64,000 bases of DNA from Planctomycetales bacterium (GCA_028285345.1 JANQPT010000018.1:79779-143778); one strand, 5' to 3'. Shown: positions 8,966 through 55,336, numbered from the stretch's first letter. Made by a program: numbers and translations. The notes: generated by a model not told the origin, from the sequence alone.

Positions 8966-11900
8966 TCAACCGACCGGAGGCACGTCGCTGGGCATTTGGT
9001 CCGGTTTGGCTTCTCCGCTGTCGCCGGCGACCGGCGGCGCGTCGGGCAGGCCTTGTTTCTCGCGTTCGAAGCGTTCCCGCTCGGCGCGGAATGATGCGAT
9101 TGCGTCGCGAAAGCGCTGCTGTTCGTTTTGAAAATGCTGGACGTCCGCCTGGAACCGGCGGTGGGCTTCCTGCAGTTTTCCCTTTTCGCCCTCCAGATGC
9201 TCGCGTTCGAAGACCAATTCGGTCGCCTGCTGATGCTGCTCCTGCTCCGCGCGGGCCTTGTCGTTTTGGAAGGCCTGAACCGCCTCGCGGAACCGCTGCT
9301 GTTCGGCGAGGAATTGTTCTTGCTGCTGGGCGAATTCGGGATCACCCGGGGACGCCGCTGCCACGGGTGCTGCGCGAAGGGCGGCGAGTTCTTGCTCTAG
9401 CTTCTGTTTTTCCTCGCTCAACCGTGCCTGTGTTGATTGCGACTGCGCGAGCTCATTTTTCAGCTTCTCGAATTGTTCTTGATCGCCGGAGGCGTTGACA
9501 TCGTGCCCCATTTCGAATTTGAGCACTTCGGCGTTGAAGTGTTGCTGATCAGTGCGGAGTTTGTCCCGGTCCGCATCAAGTTTTTGCTGCGCGTCGTTGA
9601 GCGATTCGCGATCTTTGAGCAGACTGTTCTGTCCGGCTGTCAACTGCTCTTCGCGGGCCGTGAGATCGGAGTTGCGGCGCTCGAGGTCCGATTGCTGTTG
9701 GTCAAACTGTGACCGCGCGGCCGCCAATTGTTGCCGCTCCTGCTCCAGCTTCTCCCGTTCCTCCGAGGAGATCTCCGGCGCTACGGGCGGAGGAGCGGCG
9801 GCGAGTTTGTCTCGCTGTTCTTGAAGGGCCTGTTGTTCGACGTGCAGCTTATTTCGCTGGGCGTCGAGTGCCTCGCGGTCGCTGCTGAGTTGCTGGATTT
9901 GGGACTGCAATGCCTGCTGATCGGCCGCAAGTTTTGCGGTTTGTTCGTCGAACTCCGCACGGGTTCGCTCCCACTCTTGCTTCTGGGAATCCAGTTGCCG
10001 GCGTTCGTCCTCCAAGGCTGAGCGCTGCTGATTGAGCTCGTCTAATTCTGACGCGTCGACGGTCGCATCGGCAGCGAAATCCTGTTGCGTGACTTTTTCG
10101 TTGAATGCGTCCGTATCGCGCCGCAGTTCGTCCCGCTGAGCCTGCAACTCTCCCTGTTGGCGATCGAGTGCCTCGCGGTCGGCGGCCAGGGCTTGCTGCT
10201 GTTGATCCAGTTCCTGTTGGCGTGATTCGAGTTCGCTTTGCTGTGCCGTGAAATCGGACTGTTGCTGATCGAACTCACTACGGGCCTGTTCGATTTCCGC
10301 GCGCTGTCCGTCGAGCTCACCTGCGCGACGATCGACCTCGTCAGCGCGGGATTCGAGTGCCGTGCGCTCCTCTTGAAGCTGTGATTGCAACTGCTGGACG
10401 TCCGCGGCTTCGCTGGAGGCTTGTGCCTGCTGCGCCTGGTGGGTCTCCATTTCCTTCTGGAACTCGGACTTCTCGCGCTGCAAGGTTTCCCGCAGTTCCT
10501 GCGCTTGGGCCTGCTGCTGTTCCAGTTCTTTACGATCGGCGGCCTGTTTTTCGACTTCGTCCGCGATCTGCTGCTCCCGCTGTGACAACTCCTCGTCGCG
10601 TCGTTGGGCCTCAGTACGCTGTTGTTCCAAGTCGGCCCGCTGTTGGTCCAAATCGGACTTTTGTTTCTCCCAGTCCGCCATCTGGGTTTCGAGCGCGTCG
10701 CGATCCTCCTGCAGACGCTGCTGCTGTAGTTGCTGAAGCTCGACCGCTTCACCGCGGCTCTTTTCGTCCTCAGCGGATTTGTCGAGCGCGGCCTGCTGTT
10801 CTTGGCGAAACTGAGCAAGTTCCGTTTCGAGCTCTTCTCGTTTCTGCTGCAATTCCGTTTTCTCGGCCTCAAGATCCTGAGATTGGGTCGAGAGTTTGGC
10901 GAACTGGTTCTTCAGATCGGCCTGAGTCTGTTCGGCTTCTTTCTGCGCGGCTTCAAACTGTTTGCGTTCTTCCTCAAATTTGGCGCGCAGCTCGGCGATT
11001 TCTTTTTGCGCTTCTTCGGACTGAGAAACTCCGACGAGCGCCGCTTCCCGTTTCGCCTCGATACCGGCTAATTCTTCCCCGAAATTCAACTGCTCCGCCA
11101 GGAACTTCTCGTGTTCTGCCTGGAACTGCTGTTTTTCCTCCTCAAACTGCGTGCGCTCCCGGCCCAATTCTTCGAGACGCTCGGTGAGCTCTTCGAGCCG
11201 CTTGTCGTGCTCGGTTTGAAGTTCTTCCCGAATGTCGGCCAATTCTTGTTTTTCGTCCCGGAGCAGCAGTTGCGCTTCCTGAAGCTTTTCCCGCTCCGAC
11301 TGCGATTCTTTTTCAAACTGACGTTGTTGTTTCTGCAACAGTTCCCACTGTTCATCGAGCGCAGCGTGAGCCAATTTGGAAACGCCCGAGGCGGAATGGG
11401 AGACCTCGTTGACGGCGGCGACGTCGGAGACAAATTCCGCGTGCGAATATTCGGATGCTGAAGGTGATACCCCACCCGGCAGCACGATATCAGGAGGTTC
11501 TTCAACCGGTTTCAATGAGGACTCGTCGACTTCCTCGACATCGGGAAATGGCGGAAGTTCGTCGACTCCTGAGAGGGATAACTGATCGTCGTAGATGGAG
11601 TCCTCACTTGCATTGGACGACTCGGAAAAGCTGGGGCCGGTGTAGTGGATCCGCATGCGGTAGTTCTGAACGTCCAGAACCTCGCCGTCCTCAAGCAAGT
11701 GACACGCGACCTGCTGGCCGTCGACGGAAACCGTATTGCGGGAGAGTAAGTCGATCACCCACAGGCCTTGCGACGTTCTGAGCAAGGAACAATGGACCCG
11801 GGGATTGCCACCGGCGATGCGGATCTTGCAGCCGGAGACTTTGCCGGCCAGCGTCAACATGCGGCTGACGGCCCAGAAGCGGTTTTCACCGTCCTCGCGG

Positions 11901-27908: not shown

Positions 27909-28121
27909 CGCGGAGACACGGAGCAGAAACAAATCCGAAGCACGAAATTCGAGATCCGAAACAAATTCAAAATACAAAACTCAAATGGCTGAAACATGTG
28001 AGATTAGGCCCAGCAGGAATCTGTAGACCGAAATGTTTTGGTCATTGGATATTCGGACATTCGAATTTGTTTCGGATTTCGTGCTTCGAATTTCGTATTC
28101 GAAACCTTCGTGTCTCCGTGA
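27909..28121. repeat. MITE-like intergenic element with inverted CGGAGACACGGAG termini
   Basis: Left end cggagacacggag (27911-27923), right end cgtgtctccgtg (28109-28120, reverse complement). The interior has internally repeated gaaat(t/c)cgaa/aagcacgaaat/ccgaaacaaattc units in inverted orientation. It fills the whole intergenic space. Confidence 0.6.
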
Positions 28122-29338: not shown

Positions 29339-30118
29339 TCAGCGATAACCCTTGCTCTTCAAAAACTGAATCAGTTGCGCGGGGTGGTCGCTTTGAATCG
29401 CGTGGACTCCCAGATCGAGTGACTTTTGAAATCCGGACGGCTGGTCGTTTTCTCCGAGGTTGTCGACCCAGATCTCGGCTCCCGCATCCCGGGCGGCCTT
29501 CGCGAGTTCCGGCGTCCAGTCACGCACGTTGCCGTCGAACGTTTCGGCCATGAGGTCGCGGCGGATGGATCTGATTTTCTCCACAGAACCGGGGTTGGGG
29601 GGCATGATCCAAATCTTGGGGTTCAGCTTCTTGAATTGGCGAAGGTCGTCGTAGGAACTGTAGACGATCACTTCCTCGATCATGTTCTGCCGTGCGACAA
29701 CTTTGACGACCTCCAGGACCGGCGCTTCCTTGTGATCGACGTAGACCTTGATTTTGCCGCGGCAGAAGCGGAGCGCCTCTTCGAACGTGGGCACCTTCTC
29801 GGAATCGCCGACGGTCAATTGCTGTATTTTGACGTAGGTCAGGTCTTTGACATTCCCCGTGCCGTCGGTGGTGCGGTCGACGGTGCGGTCGTGCATCAGC
29901 ACCAAGACGCCGTCCCGGCTGCGGCGGACGTCGACTTCGACGTAATCGCAGCCGAGATCGATCGCGTGCTGAAAGGACTTGAGCGTATTCTCCGGAGCGT
30001 TTTTGTGTGCGCCGCGATGGGCAATCACCCTGATCCGCTTGGGGTTCGATTCTGCCGCAGCCGTCATGCCCGCGATCCTCATCAAAACTGTGAGCAGCAG
30101 GAACAGACGAACGAGCAT
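29339..30118 (-). CDS. Glycerophosphodiester phosphodiesterase (GDPD family)
   Basis: IAHRGAHKNAPENTLKSFQHAIDLGCDYVEVDVRRSRDGVLVLMHDRTVDRTTDG is the GDPD catalytic signature (HR...ENT...E.D). N-terminal signal/TM MLVRLFLLLTVLMRIAGMTAAA. Start set at ATG 30118. The ORF track's 30259 adds 47 aa. Confidence 0.75.
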   Translation of the reverse strand: MLVRLFLLLTVLMRIAGMTAAAESNPKRIRVIAHRGAHKNAPENTLKSFQHAIDLGCDYVEVDVRRSRDGVLVLMHDRTVDRTTDGTGNVKDLTYVKIQQLTVGDSEKVPTFEEALRFCRGKIKVYVDHKEAPVLEVVKVVARQNMIEEVIVYSSYDDLRQFKKLNPKIWIMPPNPGSVEKIRSIRRDLMAETFDGNVRDWTPELAKAARDAGAEIWVDNLGENDQPSGFQKSLDLGVHAIQSDHPAQLIQFLKSKGYR

Positions 30119-30333
30119 GAGTATTTTCCCCCGATCATGGCTGCGGCCATTTGCGCCGGCGATTAATTCGAGAATCTGCAGTATTCGGGGAAACTGTAAG
30201 AACCCGCACCAACCGCGAATTCCCGCTATGGTCTCCGAATTTCGTGATCCAATCTCCAAAAAACTTCGTTATCCCAGAGGCCATGCCGAGACGCGTTGCA
30301 TAATAGCAACATGTTACCAAAGGGGAACGCCCA

Positions 30334-30945
30334 ATGTGGGAAACCGTGCAGACCTATTTCAGCGGACCGATGCTGGTGCCCAGTGCGCTGTTGGCGTTGG
30401 TCTTGTTGTATTGGTTGTTCGTGATCTTAGGCGCGTTCGACATGGACGTCCTGGATATCGACGCCGACTTAGATATCGGCGGCGACTCCATTTTCGGCAT
30501 CGGATTCGTCGCATTGCGATTTCTGAATATCGGCGACGTGCCGATCATGGTTTGGTCTAGCGTCTTTGGACTCAGTTTTTGGATCATCACCGCGATGGTG
30601 GTCCGATTGTTTGCGGACGGGATTTCCGCAAGTCCTGTCGTCGCAGTGATCGGCAGTGGATTGGTTGCGATGTTCTTGTCCAAACTGATCACCAATCCGC
30701 TACGCGGAAAGTTTAATGCGAAGGAACCCAATACGGTCGCCGATTTGATGGGACAGACCTGTGTCATCACGGCTGAAACGAATAAACAGTATGGCCAGGC
30801 CGAAATACGAACGTCGGCAGCGCCATTGCTTCTAAACGTAAGAACACTTGAAGGAACCTTGGCCAAAGGGACGCAAGCCAAGATTGATGATTTCGACGCG
30901 GAAAACCACCTGTATTATGTAAGCGGTTCCGAAGGAAAGGTGTGA
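30334..30945 (+). CDS. NfeD/YqiJ-like membrane protein (flotillin-associated, OB-fold C-terminus)
   Basis: N-terminal TM helices, acidic DIDADLDIGGD loop, and C-terminal beta-rich domain (GQTCVITAETNKQYGQAEIRT). Placed immediately 5' of the flotillin gene, as in E. coli yqiJ-yqiK. Confidence 0.6.
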   Translation: MWETVQTYFSGPMLVPSALLALVLLYWLFVILGAFDMDVLDIDADLDIGGDSIFGIGFVALRFLNIGDVPIMVWSSVFGLSFWIITAMVVRLFADGISASPVVAVIGSGLVAMFLSKLITNPLRGKFNAKEPNTVADLMGQTCVITAETNKQYGQAEIRTSAAPLLLNVRTLEGTLAKGTQAKIDDFDAENHLYYVSGSEGKV

Positions 30946-30949
30946 GAAA

Positions 30950-33052
30950 ATGCCTTGGCAAGAATTGATAATCGTAATCGCTGGGATTGGAGTCGTTGCT
31001 CTCGGGCTTGGAGTCGGCTTTGCGCGGTTCTTCCGCAAGGTTGGTCCGGAAGAAGCTCTAGTCAAATCGGGTGCGGGCGGATTGAAGGTTGCAACTGGAA
31101 ACGGGATGTGGGTGATTCCCATCATGCACCGTGTCGAAACAATGGACCTCTCCGTCAAACGGATCGAAATCACGCGTCGCGGTGAAGCGGGCCTCATTTG
31201 CAGAGACAACATCCGCGCCGACATCGAAGTTGCCTTCTTCGTCCGCGTGAACAACACCGGCGAGGACATCAAAAACGTCGCGCAATCACTCGGCTGCCGA
31301 CGCGCGTCCGAACAGCGGGCTCTCGTCGAGCTGTTCGACGCCAAGTTCTCCGAAGCCCTCAAAACGGTCGGCAAGCAGTTTGATTTTGTCGAACTGTATA
31401 ACGAGCGGGACAAGTTCAAGGTCGAAATCCTCAAGGTCATCGGCACCGACCTCAACGGCTATATCCTTGATGACTGTGCCATCGACTACTTGGAACAGAC
31501 GCCGGTTGAGATGCTCAGCCCGAATAATATTCTCGATGCCGAAGGCATCAAGAAAATCACCGATCTGACAGCGCAGGAGCACATCCAGGCGAACGACATC
31601 ACCCGCGAAAAAGAAAAGACGATCAAGAAGCAGGACGTCGAAGCCCAGGAAACGATTCTGGAGCTCGAACGGCAGCGGGTTGAAGCGGTTGAGAAGCAAA
31701 AGCGGGAAATCGCCGAAGTCTCCGCCCGCGAGCAGGCTGAAGCGAAGCGCGTGCAGGAAGAAGAACGTCTTAAGGCAGAACGGGCACGGATTACGACCGA
31801 AGAAGAGGTCAGCATCGCCGACGAAAATAAGGACCGGCAGATCATCGTCGCCCGCAAGAGCAAGGAACGGACCGACGCGGTCGAGACCGAGCGGGTTGAG
31901 AAGGACCGCCTGTTGGAAGCGACCGAGCGGGAACGGGTCGTCACGTTGGCCCAGATCGAAAAAGACAAAGCGGTCGAAGTCGAAAAGCGGAATATCCAGG
32001 ACGTGATCCGCGAGCGGGTGGTTGTCGAGCGGGCGGTCGTCGAGCAACAGGAAAAGATCAAAGACACCGAAGAATTCGCCACCGCCGACCGTTTGAAACA
32101 GGTCACGGTCACCAAGGCGGAAATGGAAGCCCAAGAATCGTTGGTCAAGGAAGTCAAAGCGGCCGAAGCCTCCAAAACAGCGGCCGAACTGCTGGCCGAA
32201 CAGCGCGTCGTCGAAGCGGAAGCCGAACGGGCAGCCGCCGAGAAGGATACGCAGGCGCAGAAAATGCTCGCCGAAGCCAAAACGGCCGACGCGGCCGCCA
32301 TCGGATTGGCGGATGCACAGGTGCTGGAAGCCAGAGCGGTCGCCATCGAAAAAGAAGGCACGGCCGAGGCCAACGTCCTGCAGCGCAAAGCGGTCGCCGA
32401 AGCGAAGGGCATCGAAGCCAAAGCGACGGCCGTCGAAAAGCAAGGCACAGCCGAAGCGAGCGTGATGCACCTCAAGTTCACCAGCGAAGCGAAGGGCATC
32501 GAGGAAAAAGCCAACGCCATGAAACTGTTCGACGGCGTGGGCCGCGAACACGAGGAATTCAAGCTGCGATTGAACAAAGACAAGGATATCGAAATCGCCG
32601 CGATTTCGGCGCAACAGGAAATTGCCGAAGCGCAGGCGGACATTGTCGGCGAAGCCCTCAAGTCGGCCCGCATCGACATCGTGGGCGGCGAAACGACCTT
32701 CTTCGACAAGATCGTCGATTCGATCAAGGGCGGAAAAGCGGTCGACCGCTTCGTGCACAACAGCGAAGTACTGACCGACGTGAAGAACTCATTCTTCAAC
32801 GGCAATCCGGACTACTTCCGCGACAAGTTGCAAGATTTTGTCGGCCAGTTCAACATGAGCTTCGACGATGTCAAGGATCTCAGCATCGCCGCATTGATCG
32901 GCAAGATGCTCACGCAGTCCGAAAGCGACGAAACGACGTCGGAACTGCAGCGGCTGCTCACGATGGTCAAAGGGACCGGCCTGGCCGATAAAAAGGTCGG
33001 CACGCTGAACATCGGCGGCCAGACCCTGACGATCGGCGGCAAGGACTCGTAA
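30950..33052 (+). CDS. Flotillin-like SPFH/band-7 protein (YqiK/FloT type) with long Ala/Glu-rich coiled-coil tail
   Basis: N-terminal TM plus SPFH core (GPEEALVKSGAGGLKVATGNGMWVIPIMHRVETMDLSVKRIEI...ICRDNIRADIEVAFFVRV). Then ~400 aa of EA/KA-rich repeats (flotillin domain). 4-nt gap from the NfeD-like gene. Confidence 0.8.
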   Translation: MPWQELIIVIAGIGVVALGLGVGFARFFRKVGPEEALVKSGAGGLKVATGNGMWVIPIMHRVETMDLSVKRIEITRRGEAGLICRDNIRADIEVAFFVRVNNTGEDIKNVAQSLGCRRASEQRALVELFDAKFSEALKTVGKQFDFVELYNERDKFKVEILKVIGTDLNGYILDDCAIDYLEQTPVEMLSPNNILDAEGIKKITDLTAQEHIQANDITREKEKTIKKQDVEAQETILELERQRVEAVEKQKREIAEVSAREQAEAKRVQEEERLKAERARITTEEEVSIADENKDRQIIVARKSKERTDAVETERVEKDRLLEATERERVVTLAQIEKDKAVEVEKRNIQDVIRERVVVERAVVEQQEKIKDTEEFATADRLKQVTVTKAEMEAQESLVKEVKAAEASKTAAELLAEQRVVEAEAERAAAEKDTQAQKMLAEAKTADAAAIGLADAQVLEARAVAIEKEGTAEANVLQRKAVAEAKGIEAKATAVEKQGTAEASVMHLKFTSEAKGIEEKANAMKLFDGVGREHEEFKLRLNKDKDIEIAAISAQQEIAEAQADIVGEALKSARIDIVGGETTFFDKIVDSIKGGKAVDRFVHNSEVLTDVKNSFFNGNPDYFRDKLQDFVGQFNMSFDDVKDLSIAALIGKMLTQSESDETTSELQRLLTMVKGTGLADKKVGTLNIGGQTLTIGGKDS

Positions 33053-33094
33053 AGATATTCGAACGTTGACGAAGTGGATTTGAAACCACAGAGT

Positions 33095-33255
33095 CACGGA
33101 GACACGGAGAGTTGCTAAACTGCAGCCGAATCGTTTACTTCGGTGATATCAAGGCACCAAGGCAGCTTTGAATCTCCCGACTTCGTGAGTTCCGCCACAG
33201 AAATTCTCAAGCTGTGCGTCGAGAGTTTTATCTGTGTGCCTCCGTGCCTCCATGG
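33095..33255. repeat. MITE-like intergenic element with inverted (CACGGAG)n termini
   Basis: Left cacggagacacggag (33095-33109), right gtgcctccgtgcctccatgg (33236-33255, reverse complement ccatggaggcacggaggcac). The interior is unrelated to the 27909 element. Sits between the flotillin stop and the giant ORF start. Confidence 0.6.
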
Positions 33256-33265
33256 TTAATTCAAT

Positions 33266-36200
33266 TTGCAGAATTCTGGACACGCCCCCATGGCTCAAGC
33301 AGAACTCGACAAGACAGCCGCGGAGGAAGAAGCCGCGCCGGCGGTTGAGCTGCAGGGCAGTACGTATGAGATTATCCGCAACCGGCTGAACACGCACGGG
33401 ACGGAGCTTCGCAGCCGGCTGGAGCAGCTCAACGACGCCCGCAAGGAGGTGTTCGGCTCGATCGACACGGTGCTGCTCTCTACGGAGCGGATCACCACCG
33501 AGCATAACTGTGAGCCCCGCGACATGGTCGCTGTCGGGAACCGATTCTTGTTCGGCTACAACGTGCATTTCGGCCTCAAGTCGGAACGGCACCTCTCCGA
33601 CGTCTTCTCAGCCTACGAATTCAAAGAAGGCGGATTCCACGAACTGCCGCTGGACATCGTTTCCGACCCGCGGTTTGAAAAGGACTTCCAGGACGTTTAC
33701 CGCTACTACAAGAACGCAGTGTTCGCCAAGTTTTTCGTCCGCGGGCCGCACTTGTATATGATCTTTCGCGTGGGCAAGGGTGTCCACGACATTAAGACCT
33801 TCAAATGGGCCCTGCAGGGCGACGAGTTGGTCTACGTCGACAATCGCAGCGACCACGAAGTCCGCTACCCTCCACAACACGAGTTCGAGTGGACCCGCAC
33901 GCACCGCGATCTGCATCAAACCGGCCAACACCCGCACATCTCGATCGAAGACCGCATCTTCGTCGAGACCATCGGCGGGGATTTGACGATCAAAGTCGAG
34001 AACAACACCGACTCGGGCGAGGGCATTTATTCCGAACCGGTCGACGACCCGGACCAGACGCTCGACGATGCGGAAATTTATTACGCCGCCGTCGGCAACG
34101 TGATTCTGCTGAAGGTCAAACCTTACCAAGAGCAGACATTTCGCTACTTCGTCTACAACGAAAAGCTGCAACAGGCGCAGCGGCTCGACGCACTGGAATA
34201 CGCGTGCGTCCTGCTGCCCGACGACCACGGGTTGATCTTCGCCGACGGCTACTATTTGCAGACGGGGTTGTGCAAGACGTTCGGCAGCAATCTGGTCGAC
34301 ATGATCTTCGAACGCCGCATCGCGGCGGCCAACGGTGAAGATTACCTCTACGTGTTTTATAACCGTCTGGCCGGCGTGTATGTGCTGTTGCAATACAATC
34401 TGATCGAGCAGCGCGTGGAAACACCCGTCATCTGCAACGGTTTCACGTTCTTCCCCAACGGCGAGATGGTCTGCTTCAAGGCGCAGGAGGAACCGCAAAA
34501 GCATCATGCGGTGCAGGTTTGGCAGACGCCGTATGTGGGCGAAGACTACGTGCCGCACTCGCAGACCGACTCGTTCCTGTTCAAGATCGGCAATAAGGAT
34601 ATCGTCCGCGGCATGGCGGAATGCCATGAACTGCTGGAGTTGATTGAAAAAGAGGACACGTACGCCAATCTGTACGTCGACATCACCAAAGAAGCGAGCG
34701 GCATCGTCGATTCGTACTTTTGGGTCGACAAGCCGGAGACGTTTGACCTCAAAGAGCCGCTGGTCAAGATTCGCGACGCCGCATCCGCCGCCGTTGATGA
34801 GTTCGACAAAGTCGTCCGCGTCAAACAGGACACCGCCCGGCAGACCAAACGGGTCAGTGAACAAGCCCGCGAGATCATCTCCGCCGTCGGCCATAAGCGG
34901 TTCGACCACATCAACGATTTCGTCGGATCGCTCAGAGATCTGCGTTCGGTCCGGGGCGACATCATTTCGCTCCGCGATCTGCGGTATGTTGACGAACCGC
35001 TCGTTGAATCACTGGAGAACGAAGTCTCCGAACAGGCGGACAAACTGGCACAGCGGTGCGTGACGTTTTTGCTCGACCCGGCGGCGCTCACGCCTTACGA
35101 GCAAAAAGTCGCGGCTGAACAAGGGAAAATCGACGGTCTCACAAAAGTCACCGATGCCAAAGCGGTCGAGGAGGACATCTCCACCAGCGCCACGGAATTG
35201 GAGATGCTGATCGAGATCGTCAGCAACCTGAAGATTGACGACGCCACACAGCGAACGGCGATCATCGACAACATCTCGGCGATTTTCTCGACGGTCAACG
35301 CCGCCCGCGCGGCCCTGAAGAACAAGACGCAAGAGTTGCTCTCGGTCGAAGGCATCGCCGAGTTCAACTCGCAAATGAAGCTGCTCAACCAGGGGGTCGT
35401 CAACTACCTCGACATCTGTGACACGCCGGAGAAGTGTGAAGAATTCCTCACCAAGGTGATGATCCAGATTGAGGAATTAGAGGGCCGGTTCGCGGAATTC
35501 GACGAATTCGTCGTACAGCTCAGCGAAAAGCGGGAAGAAATTTACAACGCGTTTGAAACGCGCAAGCTGTCGCTGGTCGAAGCCCGTAACAAACGCGCAA
35601 GCGCCCTGGCCAATGCCGCCGACCGGATTCTCAAAGGGATCAAGACCCGCGTCGACAGCCTGGAGTCGATCAACGACATCAACGGCTACTTCGCGTCGGA
35701 CTTGATGATCGAAAAAGTCCGCGACATCGTCGAGCAGCTCAAGGAACTTGACGATACGGTCAAGGTCGACGACATCCAAAGCCGGCTCAAGACCGTCAAG
35801 GAAGATGCGGTCCGGCAACTCAAGGACCGGCAGGAGCTGTTTGTCGAAGGCGACAACATCATCAAGCTGGGCGAGCACCGCTTCTCCGTGAACGTGCAGG
35901 CGCTCGATTTGACAACTGTGCTCCGCGACGGCGAGATGAATCTGCACCTTACCGGAACGAACTTCTTCGAGCCGATCAAAAATGAGACTTTGACCGCGAC
36001 CCGTGACGTCTGGGACCAAGAGGTCGTCTCCGAGAACCGCCAAGTCTATCGCGGCGAATATTTGAGCTACAAAATCCTGCAATCGCTGCGGGAACCGGGC
36101 GCCGAGCCGTCGCTCGACGAACTCCACAACTACGACGAAAAACAATTGGCCGCCTACGTGCAGCGGTTCATGGGGCCGCGTTACGGCGAGGCTTACGTCA

Positions 36201-38656
36201 AAGGCGTGCACGATCAAGACGCGGCAAAACTCCTCGCCGGCCTATTGGAGATGGAAGCGACGATCGGGCTGCTCCGCTATCACACCCGCGCCCGGGCGAT
36301 GGCGTCGGTGCTGTGGCAGCACTTCGGTGACAAGAAACACAAAACACTGCTGGCCGCGAAGCTGAAGGGATTCGGCGCTGTTGCGGAATTGTTTCCGCAG
36401 ACTGCCGCCCAAACGGACTACATCACAGAACTCAGCGAGGTGCTTCAAGCTGCCGCAGCTGAGTCGGAGTTGTTCTCTGAGGAGTTCCTCGATCCCGCTG
36501 CGGAATACTTGTTTCACAACTTGTCGACCTCCGGCGAGGCGATTAGTCCACAAGCGGCGCAACTCTATCGCGATTTCGAGGAACACCTGCAGCGCAGCGG
36601 ATTCTCTGACAAGTATGAAAAGTCGCTCAAGGCGGTCCACCGTGACCCGGCCAGTGCTTTCTCTCTGGTTCGCGATTGGGTGCGTGCCTTTGTCGAGCAG
36701 CAAGACGGCGCGGAGCTAAACGACTATGTCGACGAAGTCTCGGCCCTGTTGCTGGCAGGCAAGCTCAACGACCTGCACATCGTCAACGCCGACGTCACCT
36801 GCGAAGTCTCCGGCCTTACGGGCACGCATGCCGTGATCCACGAAGGAGGATACGACCTCAATTACAGCCGGTTTACGCACAAACTGGCCGCATATGACGC
36901 TCAGGTTGTGCCACGCTACAACCAATATGTGCAGCTCAAGAAAGACATCGTTGACGCCTCACGTGACGAAATGAAACTGGAAGAGTTCCGGCCCCGCGTG
37001 CTGACCTCGTTTGTCCGCAACCGGTTATTGGACGAAGTTTATCTTCCGCTGATCGGCGACAACCTGGCCAAACAGATCGGCGCCGCGGGTGAAGGCAAGC
37101 GGACCGACCGCATGGGCTTGCTCTTGCTGGTCTCGCCTCCGGGATATGGCAAGACGACGTTGATGGAGTACATCGCCAATCGGCTGGGGATTATCTTCAT
37201 GAAGATCAACGGGCCGGCGATCGGGCATCAGGTTACGTCGCTCGATCCCAATGAGGCCCCCAACGCCGGCGCGCGCGAAGAAGTCGAGAAGCTGAACCTC
37301 GCCCTGGAAATGGGCGACAACGTGATGATCTACCTCGACGACATTCAGCACTGCAACCCGGAGTTTCTGCAGAAATTCATTTCACTCTGCGACGCGACCC
37401 GCAAGATTGAAGGCGTGTATAAAGGCCGCACGCGGACTTATGATCTGCGCGGCCGCAAGGTCGCCGTTGTCATGGCCGGGAACCCCTATACTGAGAGCGG
37501 CGAGAAGTTTCAGATTCCCGACATGCTCTCCAACCGGGCCGATATCTACAATCTGGGCGAGATCATTGGCGAGCATGCGGCGTCGTTTGAAATGAGCTAT
37601 TTGGAGAACTGCCTCACCTCTAATCCGGTGTTGAATAACCTGGCCAGTCGCAGCCAAAGAGATGTGTATGCCGTGATCCGCATGGCGGAGCGCGACAGCG
37701 CCGAAGGGGCCGACCTGGAGGGAAACTATTCGGCCGAAGAACTGGGCGAGATGGTCTCCACCATGAAAAAGTTGATGACGGTCCGTGACGTGATTTTGAC
37801 CGTCAACCGCGAGTACATCCGCTCCGCCGCCCAGTCCGACGACTACCGCACCGAACCGGCGTTCAAACTGCAGGGTTCGTACCGGAACATGAACCGGATT
37901 GCCGAAAAGGTCGTGCCGGTAATGAACGACGACGAGTTGCAGGCGCTGATTGTGTCCAACTACGAAAACGACTCGCAGACGCTCACCTCCGATGCCGAAG
38001 CGAACATGCTCAAATTTAAGGAGTTAATCGGCATCCTTAATGACGAGGAAGCGAAGCGTTGGGCGAACATCAAGAAGACCTTTTCGCAAAACGTCAAGCT
38101 CCGCGGGGTCGACGCCGACGACAAGGTTGGGCAGATTATCGTGCAGATGAGTTCGTTCACGGACGGGCTGGACGCGATTCGCGACGCGATGACGGCCGGG
38201 ATTACTCAACTCGTGCGGCAGGGCGAGGGCTCAGAGTTGGACGAACATTTTACACAACTTTCGGCGCAGATCAGCAGCCTGCGGGAAGGGCTGGACGCAA
38301 TTCACGGCAGCCTTTCCGACGGAATCCCCGCGCTGGTGACTGCGACAGAGCGTCCCGATCCGCCCGCAGTGGTGCAGAAACCCGCAGCGCCCCCGCCGCC
38401 CTCAGACGAGAGCATCATTCAGACATCCGCCGGATCGCAGAAGATCACCGTCGTCAACAAACTGCCCCGCAGCGTCTACAACGTGCTGCAACAGCAATTC
38501 GACCTGATGCGGAATTGGATGAAGCCGCTGTTGGAATCGACCACAACGCAATCGGCGGAAATCGAGAAACTTAAGGAAACCGTCATCCAATGTCTCAAGG
38601 ATTACAACCGCATGCTCCGCCGCATCGAGCAGGACGACAAATCGAAGTCATCGTGA
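33266..38656 (+). CDS. Giant (1796 aa) multidomain protein with a single MoxR/dynein-type AAA+ ATPase core
   Basis: Walker A LLLLVSPPGYGKTTL (nt ~37133-37159). Walker B VMIYLDDIQ (nt ~37328-37342). Sensor/Arg-finger region VAVVMAGNPYTESGEKFQIPDMLSNRADIYNL. N-terminal ~600 aa globular, ~600 aa helical/coiled-coil middle, helical C-terminus ending in a Pro-rich stretch. Possible true start at MAQAELDK (33290). Confidence 0.7.
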   Translation: MQNSGHAPMAQAELDKTAAEEEAAPAVELQGSTYEIIRNRLNTHGTELRSRLEQLNDARKEVFGSIDTVLLSTERITTEHNCEPRDMVAVGNRFLFGYNVHFGLKSERHLSDVFSAYEFKEGGFHELPLDIVSDPRFEKDFQDVYRYYKNAVFAKFFVRGPHLYMIFRVGKGVHDIKTFKWALQGDELVYVDNRSDHEVRYPPQHEFEWTRTHRDLHQTGQHPHISIEDRIFVETIGGDLTIKVENNTDSGEGIYSEPVDDPDQTLDDAEIYYAAVGNVILLKVKPYQEQTFRYFVYNEKLQQAQRLDALEYACVLLPDDHGLIFADGYYLQTGLCKTFGSNLVDMIFERRIAAANGEDYLYVFYNRLAGVYVLLQYNLIEQRVETPVICNGFTFFPNGEMVCFKAQEEPQKHHAVQVWQTPYVGEDYVPHSQTDSFLFKIGNKDIVRGMAECHELLELIEKEDTYANLYVDITKEASGIVDSYFWVDKPETFDLKEPLVKIRDAASAAVDEFDKVVRVKQDTARQTKRVSEQAREIISAVGHKRFDHINDFVGSLRDLRSVRGDIISLRDLRYVDEPLVESLENEVSEQADKLAQRCVTFLLDPAALTPYEQKVAAEQGKIDGLTKVTDAKAVEEDISTSATELEMLIEIVSNLKIDDATQRTAIIDNISAIFSTVNAARAALKNKTQELLSVEGIAEFNSQMKLLNQGVVNYLDICDTPEKCEEFLTKVMIQIEELEGRFAEFDEFVVQLSEKREEIYNAFETRKLSLVEARNKRASALANAADRILKGIKTRVDSLESINDINGYFASDLMIEKVRDIVEQLKELDDTVKVDDIQSRLKTVKEDAVRQLKDRQELFVEGDNIIKLGEHRFSVNVQALDLTTVLRDGEMNLHLTGTNFFEPIKNETLTATRDVWDQEVVSENRQVYRGEYLSYKILQSLREPGAEPSLDELHNYDEKQLAAYVQRFMGPRYGEAYVKGVHDQDAAKLLAGLLEMEATIGLLRYHTRARAMASVLWQHFGDKKHKTLLAAKLKGFGAVAELFPQTAAQTDYITELSEVLQAAAAESELFSEEFLDPAAEYLFHNLSTSGEAISPQAAQLYRDFEEHLQRSGFSDKYEKSLKAVHRDPASAFSLVRDWVRAFVEQQDGAELNDYVDEVSALLLAGKLNDLHIVNADVTCEVSGLTGTHAVIHEGGYDLNYSRFTHKLAAYDAQVVPRYNQYVQLKKDIVDASRDEMKLEEFRPRVLTSFVRNRLLDEVYLPLIGDNLAKQIGAAGEGKRTDRMGLLLLVSPPGYGKTTLMEYIANRLGIIFMKINGPAIGHQVTSLDPNEAPNAGAREEVEKLNLALEMGDNVMIYLDDIQHCNPEFLQKFISLCDATRKIEGVYKGRTRTYDLRGRKVAVVMAGNPYTESGEKFQIPDMLSNRADIYNLGEIIGEHAASFEMSYLENCLTSNPVLNNLASRSQRDVYAVIRMAERDSAEGADLEGNYSAEELGEMVSTMKKLMTVRDVILTVNREYIRSAAQSDDYRTEPAFKLQGSYRNMNRIAEKVVPVMNDDELQALIVSNYENDSQTLTSDAEANMLKFKELIGILNDEEAKRWANIKKTFSQNVKLRGVDADDKVGQIIVQMSSFTDGLDAIRDAMTAGITQLVRQGEGSELDEHFTQLSAQISSLREGLDAIHGSLSDGIPALVTATERPDPPAVVQKPAAPPPPSDESIIQTSAGSQKITVVNKLPRSVYNVLQQQFDLMRNWMKPLLESTTTQSAEIEKLKETVIQCLKDYNRMLRRIEQDDKSKSS

Positions 38657-38767
38657 TCCAATTGCCAACCGCCGGCCCTGCCGGGGTTTCGCTGATGCCC
38701 AAACAAAAACGGGACCGGACGCAACAAGCGCCGGTCCCGCAATTCGTTTCATGGGCGTGTGGTCGGG

Positions 38768-39007
38768 TTATCCAAGCGACTCGTAACAGCCCCGGCCCGT
38801 GTGGCGGCATTCGCCGTCGCCGACCAGTTGGTCGTCCGGCCCGTAGGTGGCCTGTGTCTTGCCGCACCAGAAATTACCGTCGCCGGTAATCCATTCATCG
38901 CGGGGAAGCCCGGAATTGAGGTACATGCCCTTGCAGAGCAAGTTCAAGCACCGCTCACCTGTCGGCTGTTGGTCTTGTTCGTCGATGATCGGAAGTTGCT
39001 CAGCCAT
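38768..39007 (-). CDS. Small Cys-rich protein (79 aa, 6 Cys) downstream of the Mo-hydroxylase FAD subunit
   Basis: MAEQLPIIDEQDQQPTGERCLNLLCKG...NFWCGKTQ...GDGECRHTGRGCYESLG. Starts 3 nt after the FAD-subunit stop on the same strand. Confidence 0.4.
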   Translation of the reverse strand: MAEQLPIIDEQDQQPTGERCLNLLCKGMYLNSGLPRDEWITGDGNFWCGKTQATYGPDDQLVGDGECRHTGRGCYESLG

Positions 39008-39010
39008 CTG

Positions 39011-40006
39011 TTACAGACCTCCTTCCAGCAATCCGGCGGATCGCAAAATCGCCCGCTTGACCGCAGTCTTGGCAAGTTGAACTTTGTAACCGTTATCCTT
39101 CAGTGGAGTCGCGCGGCTGACGGCTGCTTCGCCGGCCAACTGAGCGGTCTCTTCCGTGACCGGTTGGCCGAGCAGTGCGCTGGCGGCTTCTTGTGATACC
39201 CACGGAGTCGGCGCCACGAAGCCAAGCACGATGCAGGCATCGCTGACCCGGCCGCCGCTCAGTTCCAATGTCGCCGCAGCGGAGGCCAACGGCCAATCCA
39301 GCCCTGCCGTCTGCAATACGTCGTAATTGCCGCTCACCGCACCCGCGATCCGCGGCAGCCAAACGTGCGAAACCAACTGGCCCGGCTTGAGCACGGTTGT
39401 TCCCTGCCGCTCTGTGCGCGGTGTTTTGTAGAAATGCTCCAGCGGGAGTACTTCTTCGTCTTCGGGTCCGGGACCGATAATCCGCACTTGGGCACCCCAG
39501 GCGATCATTGCGGGAGCAAACCGCGTCGCGGTGACGTACTTTGCCGGTCCGGAGTTTCCGAAAACAGCGTGATAACGGCCGTCGCCCAGTTCGGGCAACG
39601 ACTTGCCGTTCTCCTGCGCCAACAGGCCGTAGCCGCTGCGGTAATACCAGCAGTTCGGCAGATGGCACAAATCGCCGGCGATTGTCCCTGACGATTGGAT
39701 TTGGATGGCATGCACGGCATCGGCCGCCTGCACGAGCGAGGCGTAATCCGCCAGGAGCGGATTTTCCAAAACGTCGTCCAAGGTGACCAGTGCGCCGACC
39801 ATTACGCCGCCGTCGGCTTCATAGACTTGCTGCATGCTCTCGATATTGCGGATGTCGACCACCCGATCGGGCCGAATCACGTCAGCCTGCATCAGCGCAA
39901 TTAAATCGGTCCCGCCCGCGAAGATGGCGGTCTGTTCCGGATTGTCGCCCATCAGCTCCAACGCTTCGGTTTCGGTTCGGGGATCGGCGAATTCAAACGA
40001 CTTCAT
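39011..40006 (-). CDS. Xanthine-dehydrogenase-family FAD-binding subunit (CoxM/PaoB-like)
   Basis: MKSFEFADPRTETEALELMGDNPEQTAIFAGGTDLIALMQADVIRPDRVVDI is the FAD_binding_5 N-terminus. Start ATG 40004-40006 overlaps the Moco-subunit stop (ATGA). The ORF-track extension to 40366 is in-frame junk overlapping the upstream gene. Confidence 0.75.
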   Translation of the reverse strand: MKSFEFADPRTETEALELMGDNPEQTAIFAGGTDLIALMQADVIRPDRVVDIRNIESMQQVYEADGGVMVGALVTLDDVLENPLLADYASLVQAADAVHAIQIQSSGTIAGDLCHLPNCWYYRSGYGLLAQENGKSLPELGDGRYHAVFGNSGPAKYVTATRFAPAMIAWGAQVRIIGPGPEDEEVLPLEHFYKTPRTERQGTTVLKPGQLVSHVWLPRIAGAVSGNYDVLQTAGLDWPLASAAATLELSGGRVSDACIVLGFVAPTPWVSQEAASALLGQPVTEETAQLAGEAAVSRATPLKDNGYKVQLAKTAVKRAILRSAGLLEGGL

Positions 40007-55277: not shown

Positions 55278-55336
55278 CACGGAGACACGGAGGCACGGAG
55301 TTTCTTACCTCGTTCCCAAACTCCTGTTTGGGAACG
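55278..55336. repeat. (CACGGAG)n motif plus palindromic hairpin
   Basis: cacggagacacggaggcacggag (55278-55300) followed by the perfect hairpin cgttcccaaac-tcct-gtttgggaacg (55311-55336). Related to the termini of the elements at 27909 and 33095. Confidence 0.55.

Follow-up and report, generated by a model that had tools for sequence, protein, structure and literature searches.

A YqiJ/NfeD-like protein, a YqiK-type flotillin, and a giant AAA+ protein encoded as a three-gene module in a planctomycete

The closest described counterpart of the genes analyzed here was reported by Ravi et al. (mSystems, 2024, PMC11237479; preprint 2020), whose survey of PspA gene neighborhoods found a CesT/Tir-PspA dyad accompanied by three more genes. 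These encode a YqiJ/YuaF protein, a band-7/flotillin protein, and a protein with a β-propeller, a coiled coil, and an AAA+ domain; a PLD hydrolase is sometimes present, and abbreviated operons lacking PspA are widespread (PMC11237479). For Dokdonia donghaensis (ANH61663.1), Table S3 of that study gives the order CesT_Tir, YqiJ-YuaF, Band-7 + coiled-coil + flotillin, and β-propeller + coiled-coil + AAA-ATPase. The description, which places the module in the phage-shock network of membrane stress, is a brief computational note that contains neither a mechanism nor an experiment. In this work, we examined a stretch of 64,000 nucleotides (nt) of planctomycete DNA, hereafter the window, in which three genes on the + strand encode a YqiJ/NfeD-like inner-membrane protein of 203 amino acids (aa) (30334..30945), a YqiK-type flotillin of 700 aa (30950..33052), and a giant soluble protein of 1788 aa (33290..38656). 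All three had been marked as same-strand open reading frames (ORFs) by a first-pass annotation of the window, and all were recovered at the same positions. The best named relatives of the giant and the flotillin are proteins of Symmachiella dynata.

The operon of Ravi et al. and the window agree in the three core proteins, in their domain architectures, and in gene order. The full form also has CesT/Tir, PspA, an HTH-S24 regulator, and sometimes PLD, whereas the window has the three-gene core only. Because this core is present and the CesT/Tir-PspA dyad is absent from the 64-kilobase (kb) window, the window module is, as judged by its gene content, an abbreviated form of the PspA-associated operon. 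The window genes are tied to the published description by the propeller fold of DUF3686, a domain of the giant, and by the PspA, CesT, and PLD neighbors found in relatives; the full form (LexA-like regulator, CesT/Tir, PspA, YqiJ, flotillin, giant, and sometimes PLD) is present in related loci that we examined. The first-pass annotation could match the giant and the flotillin to no described system, a claim that has to be withdrawn, as the triad and its architecture are already in PMC11237479. The module is real and was previously noted computationally, and the window copy is an ordinary chromosomal instance of it. Our analysis adds a quantified linkage, the connection of DUF3686 with the published "β-propeller," and a flotillin C terminus that is a candidate docking site.

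Other described systems resemble the locus in part. Escherichia coli yqiJ-yqiK and Bacillus subtilis yuaF-floT are homologous NfeD-flotillin pairs in the same order, but the E. coli pair has no third gene and is followed by sibD/ibsD and hldE. In HflK/HflC-FtsH, an SPFH scaffold and an AAA+ ATPase work together at the inner membrane, as is proposed here. SPFH cages enclose and regulate the AAA+ protease FtsH (summarized in PMC13086221 and PMC13220708), hflK and hflC of gamma- and beta-proteobacteria lie in an hfq-hflX-hflK-hflC operon, and Staphylococcus aureus FloA-NfeD is reported to stabilize unfolded proteins (both PMC13086221). The suggestion that the giant stands in place of FtsH holds only as an analogy. 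FtsH is a membrane-anchored zinc protease, whereas the giant is soluble, with no hydrophobic transmembrane-like window by hydropathy and no protease domain, M41 zinc protease included, in a Pfam scan, and it carries a β-propeller and a helical region of ~800 aa. The giant was therefore rejected as an FtsH-type membrane protease, and the window module is not of the HflK/C-FtsH type.

The role of bacterial flotillins and their NfeD partners is still unclear, according to the SPFH papers (PMC13086221; 2009 SPFH evolution paper). Neither the Pseudomonas aeruginosa SPFH survey (PMC13086221) nor the 2009 paper mentions the ATPase. Our literature searches returned no paper with the term "DUF3686," none pairing flotillin with "DNA repair ATPase," nothing useful for pQBR103 together with PspA, and no later work on the module.

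Linkage of the three genes across genomes

We assessed the linkage in two sets of loci and in a number of individual records. The genome set was obtained by scanning one genome per species with the giant, which gave 545 confirmed relatives, and the best 80 loci were examined; by their record titles, they belong to Planctomycetota, Bacteroidota, Verrucomicrobiota, Desulfobacterota, Calditrichota, and Hydrogenedentota. The metagenome set came from a separate scan with seeds only 27–43% identical to one another (median best-segment identity, 42%). In addition, gene order around the giant was inspected in eight annotated or looked-up records: Proteus mirabilis (triad proteins of 209, 731, and 1644 aa), Stenotrophomonas, Pseudomonas fluorescens pQBR103, two Streptomyces linear plasmids, Deinococcus grandis pDEGR-1, Vibrio campbellii, and a Hymenobacter plasmid.

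Of the 63 genome loci with 2.6 kb or more of sequence upstream of the giant, 60 have a flotillin homolog as the immediately preceding gene on the same strand, and a YqiJ-like gene is found upstream in 59 of 62. The corresponding counts in the metagenome set are 55/58 for the flotillin and 38/45 for the less conserved YqiJ-like gene, and all eight records have the flotillin upstream of the giant. Combined, the flotillin-giant linkage holds in 115 of 121 loci and 8 of 8 records. The loci span at least nine phyla, namely those of the genome set together with Pseudomonadota, Actinomycetota, and Deinococcota. When the ORFs of the 80 loci were clustered, only three families recurred (in 75, 63, and 57 loci), the next family reaching 15, and none of the neighbors of the triad in the window is conserved across these loci. 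Pairwise identities of giant and flotillin also co-vary across loci (Pearson 0.90). Together, these sequence data indicate that the linkage is not due to chance. The recurrent adjacency of the giant to an SPFH/NfeD pair, which the first-pass annotation had singled out as the neighborhood to check, is thus borne out, and the converse, that homologs of the giant are never adjacent to SPFH genes, is clearly contradicted.

The departures from this arrangement can be listed individually. The L040 locus looks degraded, and L097, L107, and L157 are the flotillin-less cases of the metagenome set. Intact giants that lack both a flotillin and a YqiJ gene in the 10 kb upstream occur at 9887–15484 of L061, a Desulfobacteraceae metagenome-assembled genome (MAG), and at 9998–15022 of L066, a Cytophagales MAG. 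In Bacteroidota, variable small genes that differ by genome lie between flotillin and giant (L073, 8675–9838, for example a DUF3800 protein; L074, 8615–9701; L079, 8453–9737; L058, 9322–9943).

The wider surroundings of the module in other genomes link it recurrently to membrane-stress genes of the PspA and CesT type. Immediately upstream of the triad in the Bacteroidota loci L058, L076, and L079 and on the Hymenobacter plasmid are CesT_Tir_1 (E = 4e-54) and PspA_IM30 (E = 4e-41) genes, with an HTH-S24 (LexA-like) regulator transcribed divergently. A PLD/HKD gene adjoins the module in four planctomycete and two Bacteroidota loci and lies downstream of it in Vibrio. On pQBR103 (L085, record 85112–97641), the triad directly follows a cluster of PspA/IM30, rhomboid, DUF2491, DUF350, DUF1190, and glutathionylspermidine-synthase-like genes. 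Cluster and triad are on one strand of this megaplasmid of P. fluorescens SBW25, and an MvaT/MvaU-type silencer gene is convergent downstream. In Stenotrophomonas (L084, 6758–8624), a TelA gene, itself preceded by an Ala/Gln-rich ORF of 240 aa, follows directly on the giant, and in Streptomyces (L086, 16131–16664), a TerD gene lies near the triad; both families carry the annotation of tellurite/toxic-anion resistance proteins. Within its 64 kb, the window has no PspA, CesT, PLD, or HTH-S24 homolog (tblastn, E ≤ 1).

The three proteins

In the 203-aa protein, hydropathy analysis predicted three hydrophobic windows (aa 7–42, 69–95, and 96–121); the C-terminal domain is soluble. With the E. coli K-12 yqiJ-yqiK locus as the reference, a family profile built on a 25-sequence alignment matched the whole of E. 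coli YqiJ (hhalign probability, 96.8%; E = 2.8e-10; 186 columns). The Pfam YqiJ_N match is sub-threshold (E = 0.011; 16.4 bits versus a cutoff of 23), and the Hymenobacter ortholog carries a DUF1449 annotation.

The flotillin gene starts 4 nt after the stop codon of the YqiJ-like gene. E. coli YqiK aligned to its product by BLASTP with 30% identity over 448 aa (E = 6e-46), an alignment that spans the membrane anchor, the SPFH/band-7 domain (N-terminal ~200 aa), and the EA-rich coiled coil. The only hydrophobic segment, aa 1–28, forms the predicted N-terminal anchor, and the EA-rich region at aa ~200–560 aligns with the YqiK coiled coil. A Pfam search of the 700-aa protein returned nothing even at E = 10, so that Band_7 was not reached; NCBIfam gave a weak FloT match, and a sequence search of the Protein Data Bank (PDB) gave no significant match. 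Two close homologs carry PF01145, and the source names of homologs are "flotillin family protein" or "YqiK." The closest named relatives, from S. dynata, are 85–86% identical. The direct comparison with E. coli settles both labels at the sequence level, as YqiJ/NfeD-like and YqiK-type flotillin, in agreement with the first-pass annotation, although Pfam hardly reveals them.

The window flotillin is ~150 aa longer than YqiK. Its C-terminal block at aa ~500–650 does not align to YqiK and is conserved across loci (conservation, 0.58–0.73). Because E. coli yqiJK has no third gene, the giant appears to partner only a subset of YqiK-type flotillins, marked by this longer, conserved C-terminal region. 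An extra short SPFH paralog of 183–197 aa is encoded between the YqiJ-like gene and the long flotillin in some loci (L072, 6204–6773, Pfam Band_7 E = 2e-13; L076, 6987–7538; L030, 2451–3044).

The giant had been described as a protein of 1796 aa. An ORF of that length does run from a TTG codon (33266–38656, +), but the most likely start is the ATG at 33290, giving 1788 aa, because this ATG and the codons that follow (ATGGCTCAAGCAGAACTCGA) are conserved in the two closest loci, where the sequence upstream is not, and because an identical 1788-aa protein is on record (P0001). Pfam divides the giant into DUF3686 (PF12458, "ATPase involved in DNA repair"; aa 47–485, E = 3.6e-191, profile positions 1–448 of 448), a helical region with DUF7902 (PF25472; aa 607–690, E = 4e-27), and an AAA+ domain, followed by a tail. 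Both DUFs are matched over their full length. The generic AAA match is partial, around the P-loop (E = 1.7e-6), and RuvB_N, AAA_22, and AAA_5 are marginal. As the first-pass annotation had anticipated, these hidden Markov model searches assign the giant to no characterized family, and across all three proteins, the Pfam, NCBIfam, and PADLOC scans gave only DUFs and the generic AAA core, with no functional family. Among the candidates scored, 4555 homologs of the giant were counted at E ≤ 1e-10, and those listed are 1600–1900 aa long with the identical Pfam set; 1032 clusters at 50% identity match its N-terminal 737 aa at E ≤ 1e-3. The closest named relative, from S. dynata, is 82% identical. 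A eukaryote gene set ("eukprot") contains a protein of 1711 aa (P0067) that is 68% identical to the planctomycete giant, probably a bacterial contamination or a recent transfer.

We modeled two segments of the giant, aa 1–560 and aa 1180–1650, with AlphaFold2 (AF2) on 53-sequence alignments that include gammaproteobacterial members (37–58% identity). The model of aa 1–560 (pLDDT 84.5, pTM 0.78) has a helix at aa 25–55, ~27 β-strands in four-strand groups (aa 61–412), and a helical bundle (aa 429–559); from the strand pattern, we estimate six to seven blades. The Foldseek PDB matches checked for this model are all β-propellers (among them CyRPA, the WD40 domains of LRRK2 and WDR91, prolyl oligopeptidase, the clathrin terminal domain, and LGI1), with E values of ~1e-5 to 1e-6. 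Because their TM-scores are low, we call the predicted fold of this N-terminal region a divergent β-propeller; together with the preceding helix, it corresponds to Pfam DUF3686 (33362..34534, + strand; propeller at aa ~60–415). The first-pass annotation had proposed a single AAA+ core between an N-terminal globular region without assignment and C-terminal helical repeats. The single core stands, but the N-terminal region is modeled as a propeller, and most helices lie before the AAA+ domain, not after it. The long helical region (aa ~429–1244; 34574..37021, +) is supported by the modeled portion at aa 429–559, which is helical, by DUF7902 (nt 35084–35335), and by conservation, with a conserved central block at aa ~700–900. 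A weak PADLOC match to LmuB, an SMC-like protein (aa 545–885, E = 5.5e-5), represents a coiled-coil-type similarity.

The AAA+ ATPase module, placed by motifs, AF2, and Foldseek, lies at 37022..37984 (+). The motifs SPPGYGKTT, IYLDD, and AGNPY...SNRADIY noted at first pass are all present in the giant. Walker A (SPPGYGKTT, 37133–37159, +) and Walker B (IYLDD, 37328–37342, +) are ~65 residues apart in one contiguous domain near the C terminus. An SbcC/Rad50/SMC-type ATPase was rejected on these grounds, as there is no split head. We assigned sensor-1 to Asn-1398 (AGNPY), a candidate arginine finger to Arg-1416 (SNRAD), and a candidate sensor-2 to Arg-1532 (GSYRNM). Walker A, Walker B (YLDD), the sensor-1 asparagine, the SNRAD arginine, and the lid arginine of GSYRNM are invariant, even in members only 27–40% identical. 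This family-wide invariance of the nucleotide-binding and hydrolysis motifs suggests that the ATPase is probably active.

Assignment of the domain to a clade, including the MoxR/dynein type named by the first-pass annotation, is less clear-cut. The model of aa 1180–1650 (pLDDT 83.5) shows an α/β core followed by helical lid-like domains, and its top Foldseek matches were NorQ, CbbQ, RuvB, MCM, Vps4, FtsH, and Cdc48, all at E ~1e-6 and 12–19% identity. Target-normalized TM-scores do not exceed 0.57, NorQ and CbbQ scoring barely above RuvB, MCM, and Vps4. PDB searches with the single sequence and with a 53-sequence profile aligned only ~45–85 residues around the P-loop, to Cdc48/p97/RuvB. Among MoxR types (NorQ, CbbQ, RavA), NorQ and CbbQ are the best-scoring solved folds, and Pfam AAA_5 is marginally matched (23.2 bits versus a cutoff of 22). 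The SNRAD arginine lies directly before strand β5, an arrangement that we take to resemble the (S/D)RF motif of the MoxR superclade. However, identity to the MoxR folds is 13–16%, no VWA gene is among the conserved neighbors, the model has no clear helix-2 insert, and the ATPase is one part of a multidomain protein of 1788 aa. A possible analogy also exists with Vps4 and ESCRT-III, of which PspA/Vipp1 is the bacterial form: a cytoplasmic AAA+ protein is encoded beside a membrane-remodeling polymer, PspA is a recurrent neighbor, and Vps4 is among the fold matches. On the other hand, no MIT domain was detected in the giant, whose fold and motifs resemble Vps4 no more than they resemble MoxR or RuvB. 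The model also contains a β-hairpin after Walker B and before sensor 1. AAA+ proteins of the classical clade, Vps4 among them, lack such a hairpin, which argues against that clade.

The C-terminal tail (aa ~1640–1788; 38207..38653, +) is poorly conserved by tblastn and by the conservation profile. Conservation falls to 0.2–0.3 in this tail, where a Pro-rich linker (PDPPAVVQKPAAPPPPSDES) leads into a helix-like terminal segment; a few residues of the segment are invariant within planctomycete homologs. In the non-planctomycete lineages examined by tblastn, Bacteroidota included, the alignment ends at query residue ~1598–1640. The tail thus appears to be lineage-specific.

Proposed function and alternative explanations

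From gene order and sequence, we conclude that the three genes make up a predicted self-contained membrane module of a YqiJ/NfeD-like protein with three transmembrane segments, a YqiK-type flotillin, and a cytoplasmic giant. That the giant and the flotillin pair work jointly at the membrane is, in our view, very likely. In the mechanism we propose, the flotillin, anchored by its N terminus and organized with YqiJ, would oligomerize into a scaffold on the cytoplasmic side of the inner membrane. The giant would dock on this scaffold via its β-propeller and/or its helical arm, with the partner-specific conserved C-terminal region of the flotillin as the candidate docking site, and would, probably in the form of an AAA+ ring, draw on ATP hydrolysis for assembling, remodeling, or disassembling the scaffold. 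Its action on the flotillin would resemble that of Vps4 on ESCRT-III. Where PspA is present, the PspA scaffold or its clients may also be acted on by the giant during envelope stress. We lean, by a small measure, toward this combined explanation, an abbreviated PspA-associated module in which the giant is an ATP-driven remodeler of flotillin (and PspA) scaffolds in envelope stress. The more specific proposal of a motor dedicated to building, reshaping, or dismantling flotillin cages, with the giant handing over to or cooperating with PspA, is tentative and could well prove wrong.

Several observations weigh against scaffold remodeling. Contact between giant and flotillin is deduced from synteny, and we found no experiment on any module member in the literature. 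Giants with no flotillin within 6–10 kb occur at L061, L066, L097, L107, and L157. Walker B ends in DD instead of the usual DE. The loop after strand β2 (NGPAIGHQVTSLDP) has no aromatic residue; typical threading AAA+ unfoldases carry one in their pore loop, so Vps4-like threading is uncertain. The DD of Walker B likewise speaks against simple threading. Finally, the Psp link is indirect in this organism because the window is without a PspA, CesT, or PLD homolog.

Other functions would account for part of the same evidence. The giant might be a chaperone or unfoldase for membrane- or periplasm-bound clients, with the flotillin cage as a compartment that is not itself remodeled. The SPFH cages that enclose and regulate FtsH (PMC13086221, PMC13220708) and the reported activity of FloA-NfeD on unfolded proteins (PMC13086221) would fit such a role, as would FtsH, Cdc48, and Vps4 among the nearest folds. 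We nevertheless consider it unlikely, as the giant has neither a protease domain nor a membrane anchor, no protease gene is conserved nearby, and the usual aromatic pore-loop residue is missing, although the present data fit both this role and scaffold remodeling. A role in DNA repair, as a RuvB- or SbcC/Rad50-like ATPase whose adjacency to flotillin is functionally meaningless, is suggested by the name "DNA repair ATPase" used by the sources and by the Pfam description of DUF3686, along with weak RuvB_N/RuvB matches (E ~1e-5) and RuvB among the folds. The RuvB similarity is limited to ~45–60 residues around the P-loop, however, and there is no ABC/SMC split ATPase head, the weak LmuB coiled-coil match being the only SMC-like signal. 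Nor did Pfam detect a DNA-binding domain, and no repair gene is conserved near a giant that is co-linear with membrane proteins in 115/121 loci and 8/8 records. We regard this role as highly improbable. The name, carried in thousands of annotations, appears from the sequence to be a misnomer without support, probably derived from coiled-coil similarity to SbcC/Rad50-type proteins.

The triad might also be an anti-phage or conflict system, in which the giant would sense an invader via its propeller and the flotillin/YqiJ pair, with PLD where present, would trigger abortive infection at the level of the membrane. Fusions of large NTPases to repeat domains are characteristic of conflict systems. 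The patchy distribution of the module and the 53–58% identity between planctomycete and Bacteroidota proteins over ~1700 aa suggest horizontal transfer, the module is found on megaplasmids, and an HTH-S24 repressor and a PLD/HKD enzyme recur beside it. Yet none of the three proteins has a meaningful PADLOC match, no homolog was found in 50,697 phage records, and the window neighbors are ordinary metabolic genes rather than a defense island. The proteins are also unusually well conserved (mean pairwise identity of giant and flotillin, 55–58%), unlike fast-evolving sensors, and the recurrent partners, PspA and a CesT-type chaperone, point to membrane maintenance. Defense is accordingly a function to which we give little credence.

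If scaffold remodeling by the giant is correct, no ATPase before it would have been known to target an SPFH scaffold directly, and it would correspond in bacteria to Vps4 acting on ESCRT-III; flotillin dynamics would gain an energy source, and bacterial flotillins a testable biochemical function. A dedicated AAA+ protein strictly co-inherited with flotillins, in about a thousand 50%-identity clusters and at least nine phyla, and PspA-adjacent in some lineages, provides a concrete biochemical handle, which makes the module an attractive lead for flotillin biology. Experiments are feasible because the module occurs in the tractable P. mirabilis, in P. fluorescens SBW25 with pQBR103, and in Streptomyces.

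Neighboring genes and the spacer repeat

The neighbors of the module in the window are metabolic: an oxoprolinase, a molybdopterin oxidoreductase, a xanthine-dehydrogenase-like cluster, and a divergent GDPD gene. The last, encoding a glycerophosphodiester phosphodiesterase (lipid head-group turnover), lies at 29339–30259 on the − strand, divergent from the module. Because a homolog was found in only 1 of 80 related loci, this pairing is probably a coincidence.

The spacer between flotillin and giant (33053..33289) extends over 213 nt up to the TTG or 237 nt up to the ATG. It contains an imperfect inverted repeat with 27-nt arms (33084–33110 and 33231–33257), 78% complementary, which consist of CACGGAGACACGGAG and its complement and flank 120 nt. 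The arm motif CTCCGTGNCTCCGTG occurs seven times in the window versus 0.03 expected. Copies of CACGGAGACACGGAG/CTCCGTGNCTCCGTG are located at three intergenic sites (27909–28120, 33087–33254, and 55278–55300); the copy at 27909/28106 is a second inverted pair, and that at 55278–55300 is a tandem half-site. At the two inverted-pair sites, the arms are 120–180 nt apart, and the interiors are unrelated to each other. Given the copy number and the intergenic sites, labeling the element a dispersed repeat resembling miniature inverted-repeat transposable elements (MITEs) or repetitive extragenic palindromes (REPs) is reasonable, and it looks like a family of this genome. The MITE-like repeat that the first-pass annotation had placed in a spacer of ~210 bp is thus indeed an inverted repeat and a member of a dispersed family.

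The RNA fold of the spacer is somewhat better than that of shuffled sequences (z = −2.5). No terminator-like site was found on its + strand, a promoter/terminator scan was at background level, and an Rfam search of 29900–39300 gave no match. Apart from the right arm, which one of them shares, the closest relatives do not conserve the sequence of the spacer; their equivalent spacers hold other palindromic units. A hairpin, GTTCCCAAACTCCTGTTTGGGAAC, at 55312–55335 adjoins the repeat copy at 55278. Similar palindromes, GGTTCCCAA...TTGGGAACC, take up the spacer between flotillin and giant in each of the two closest relatives (L006, 9700–9950; L001, 1680–1900), and such hairpins may represent a second palindromic element family common to these planctomycetes.

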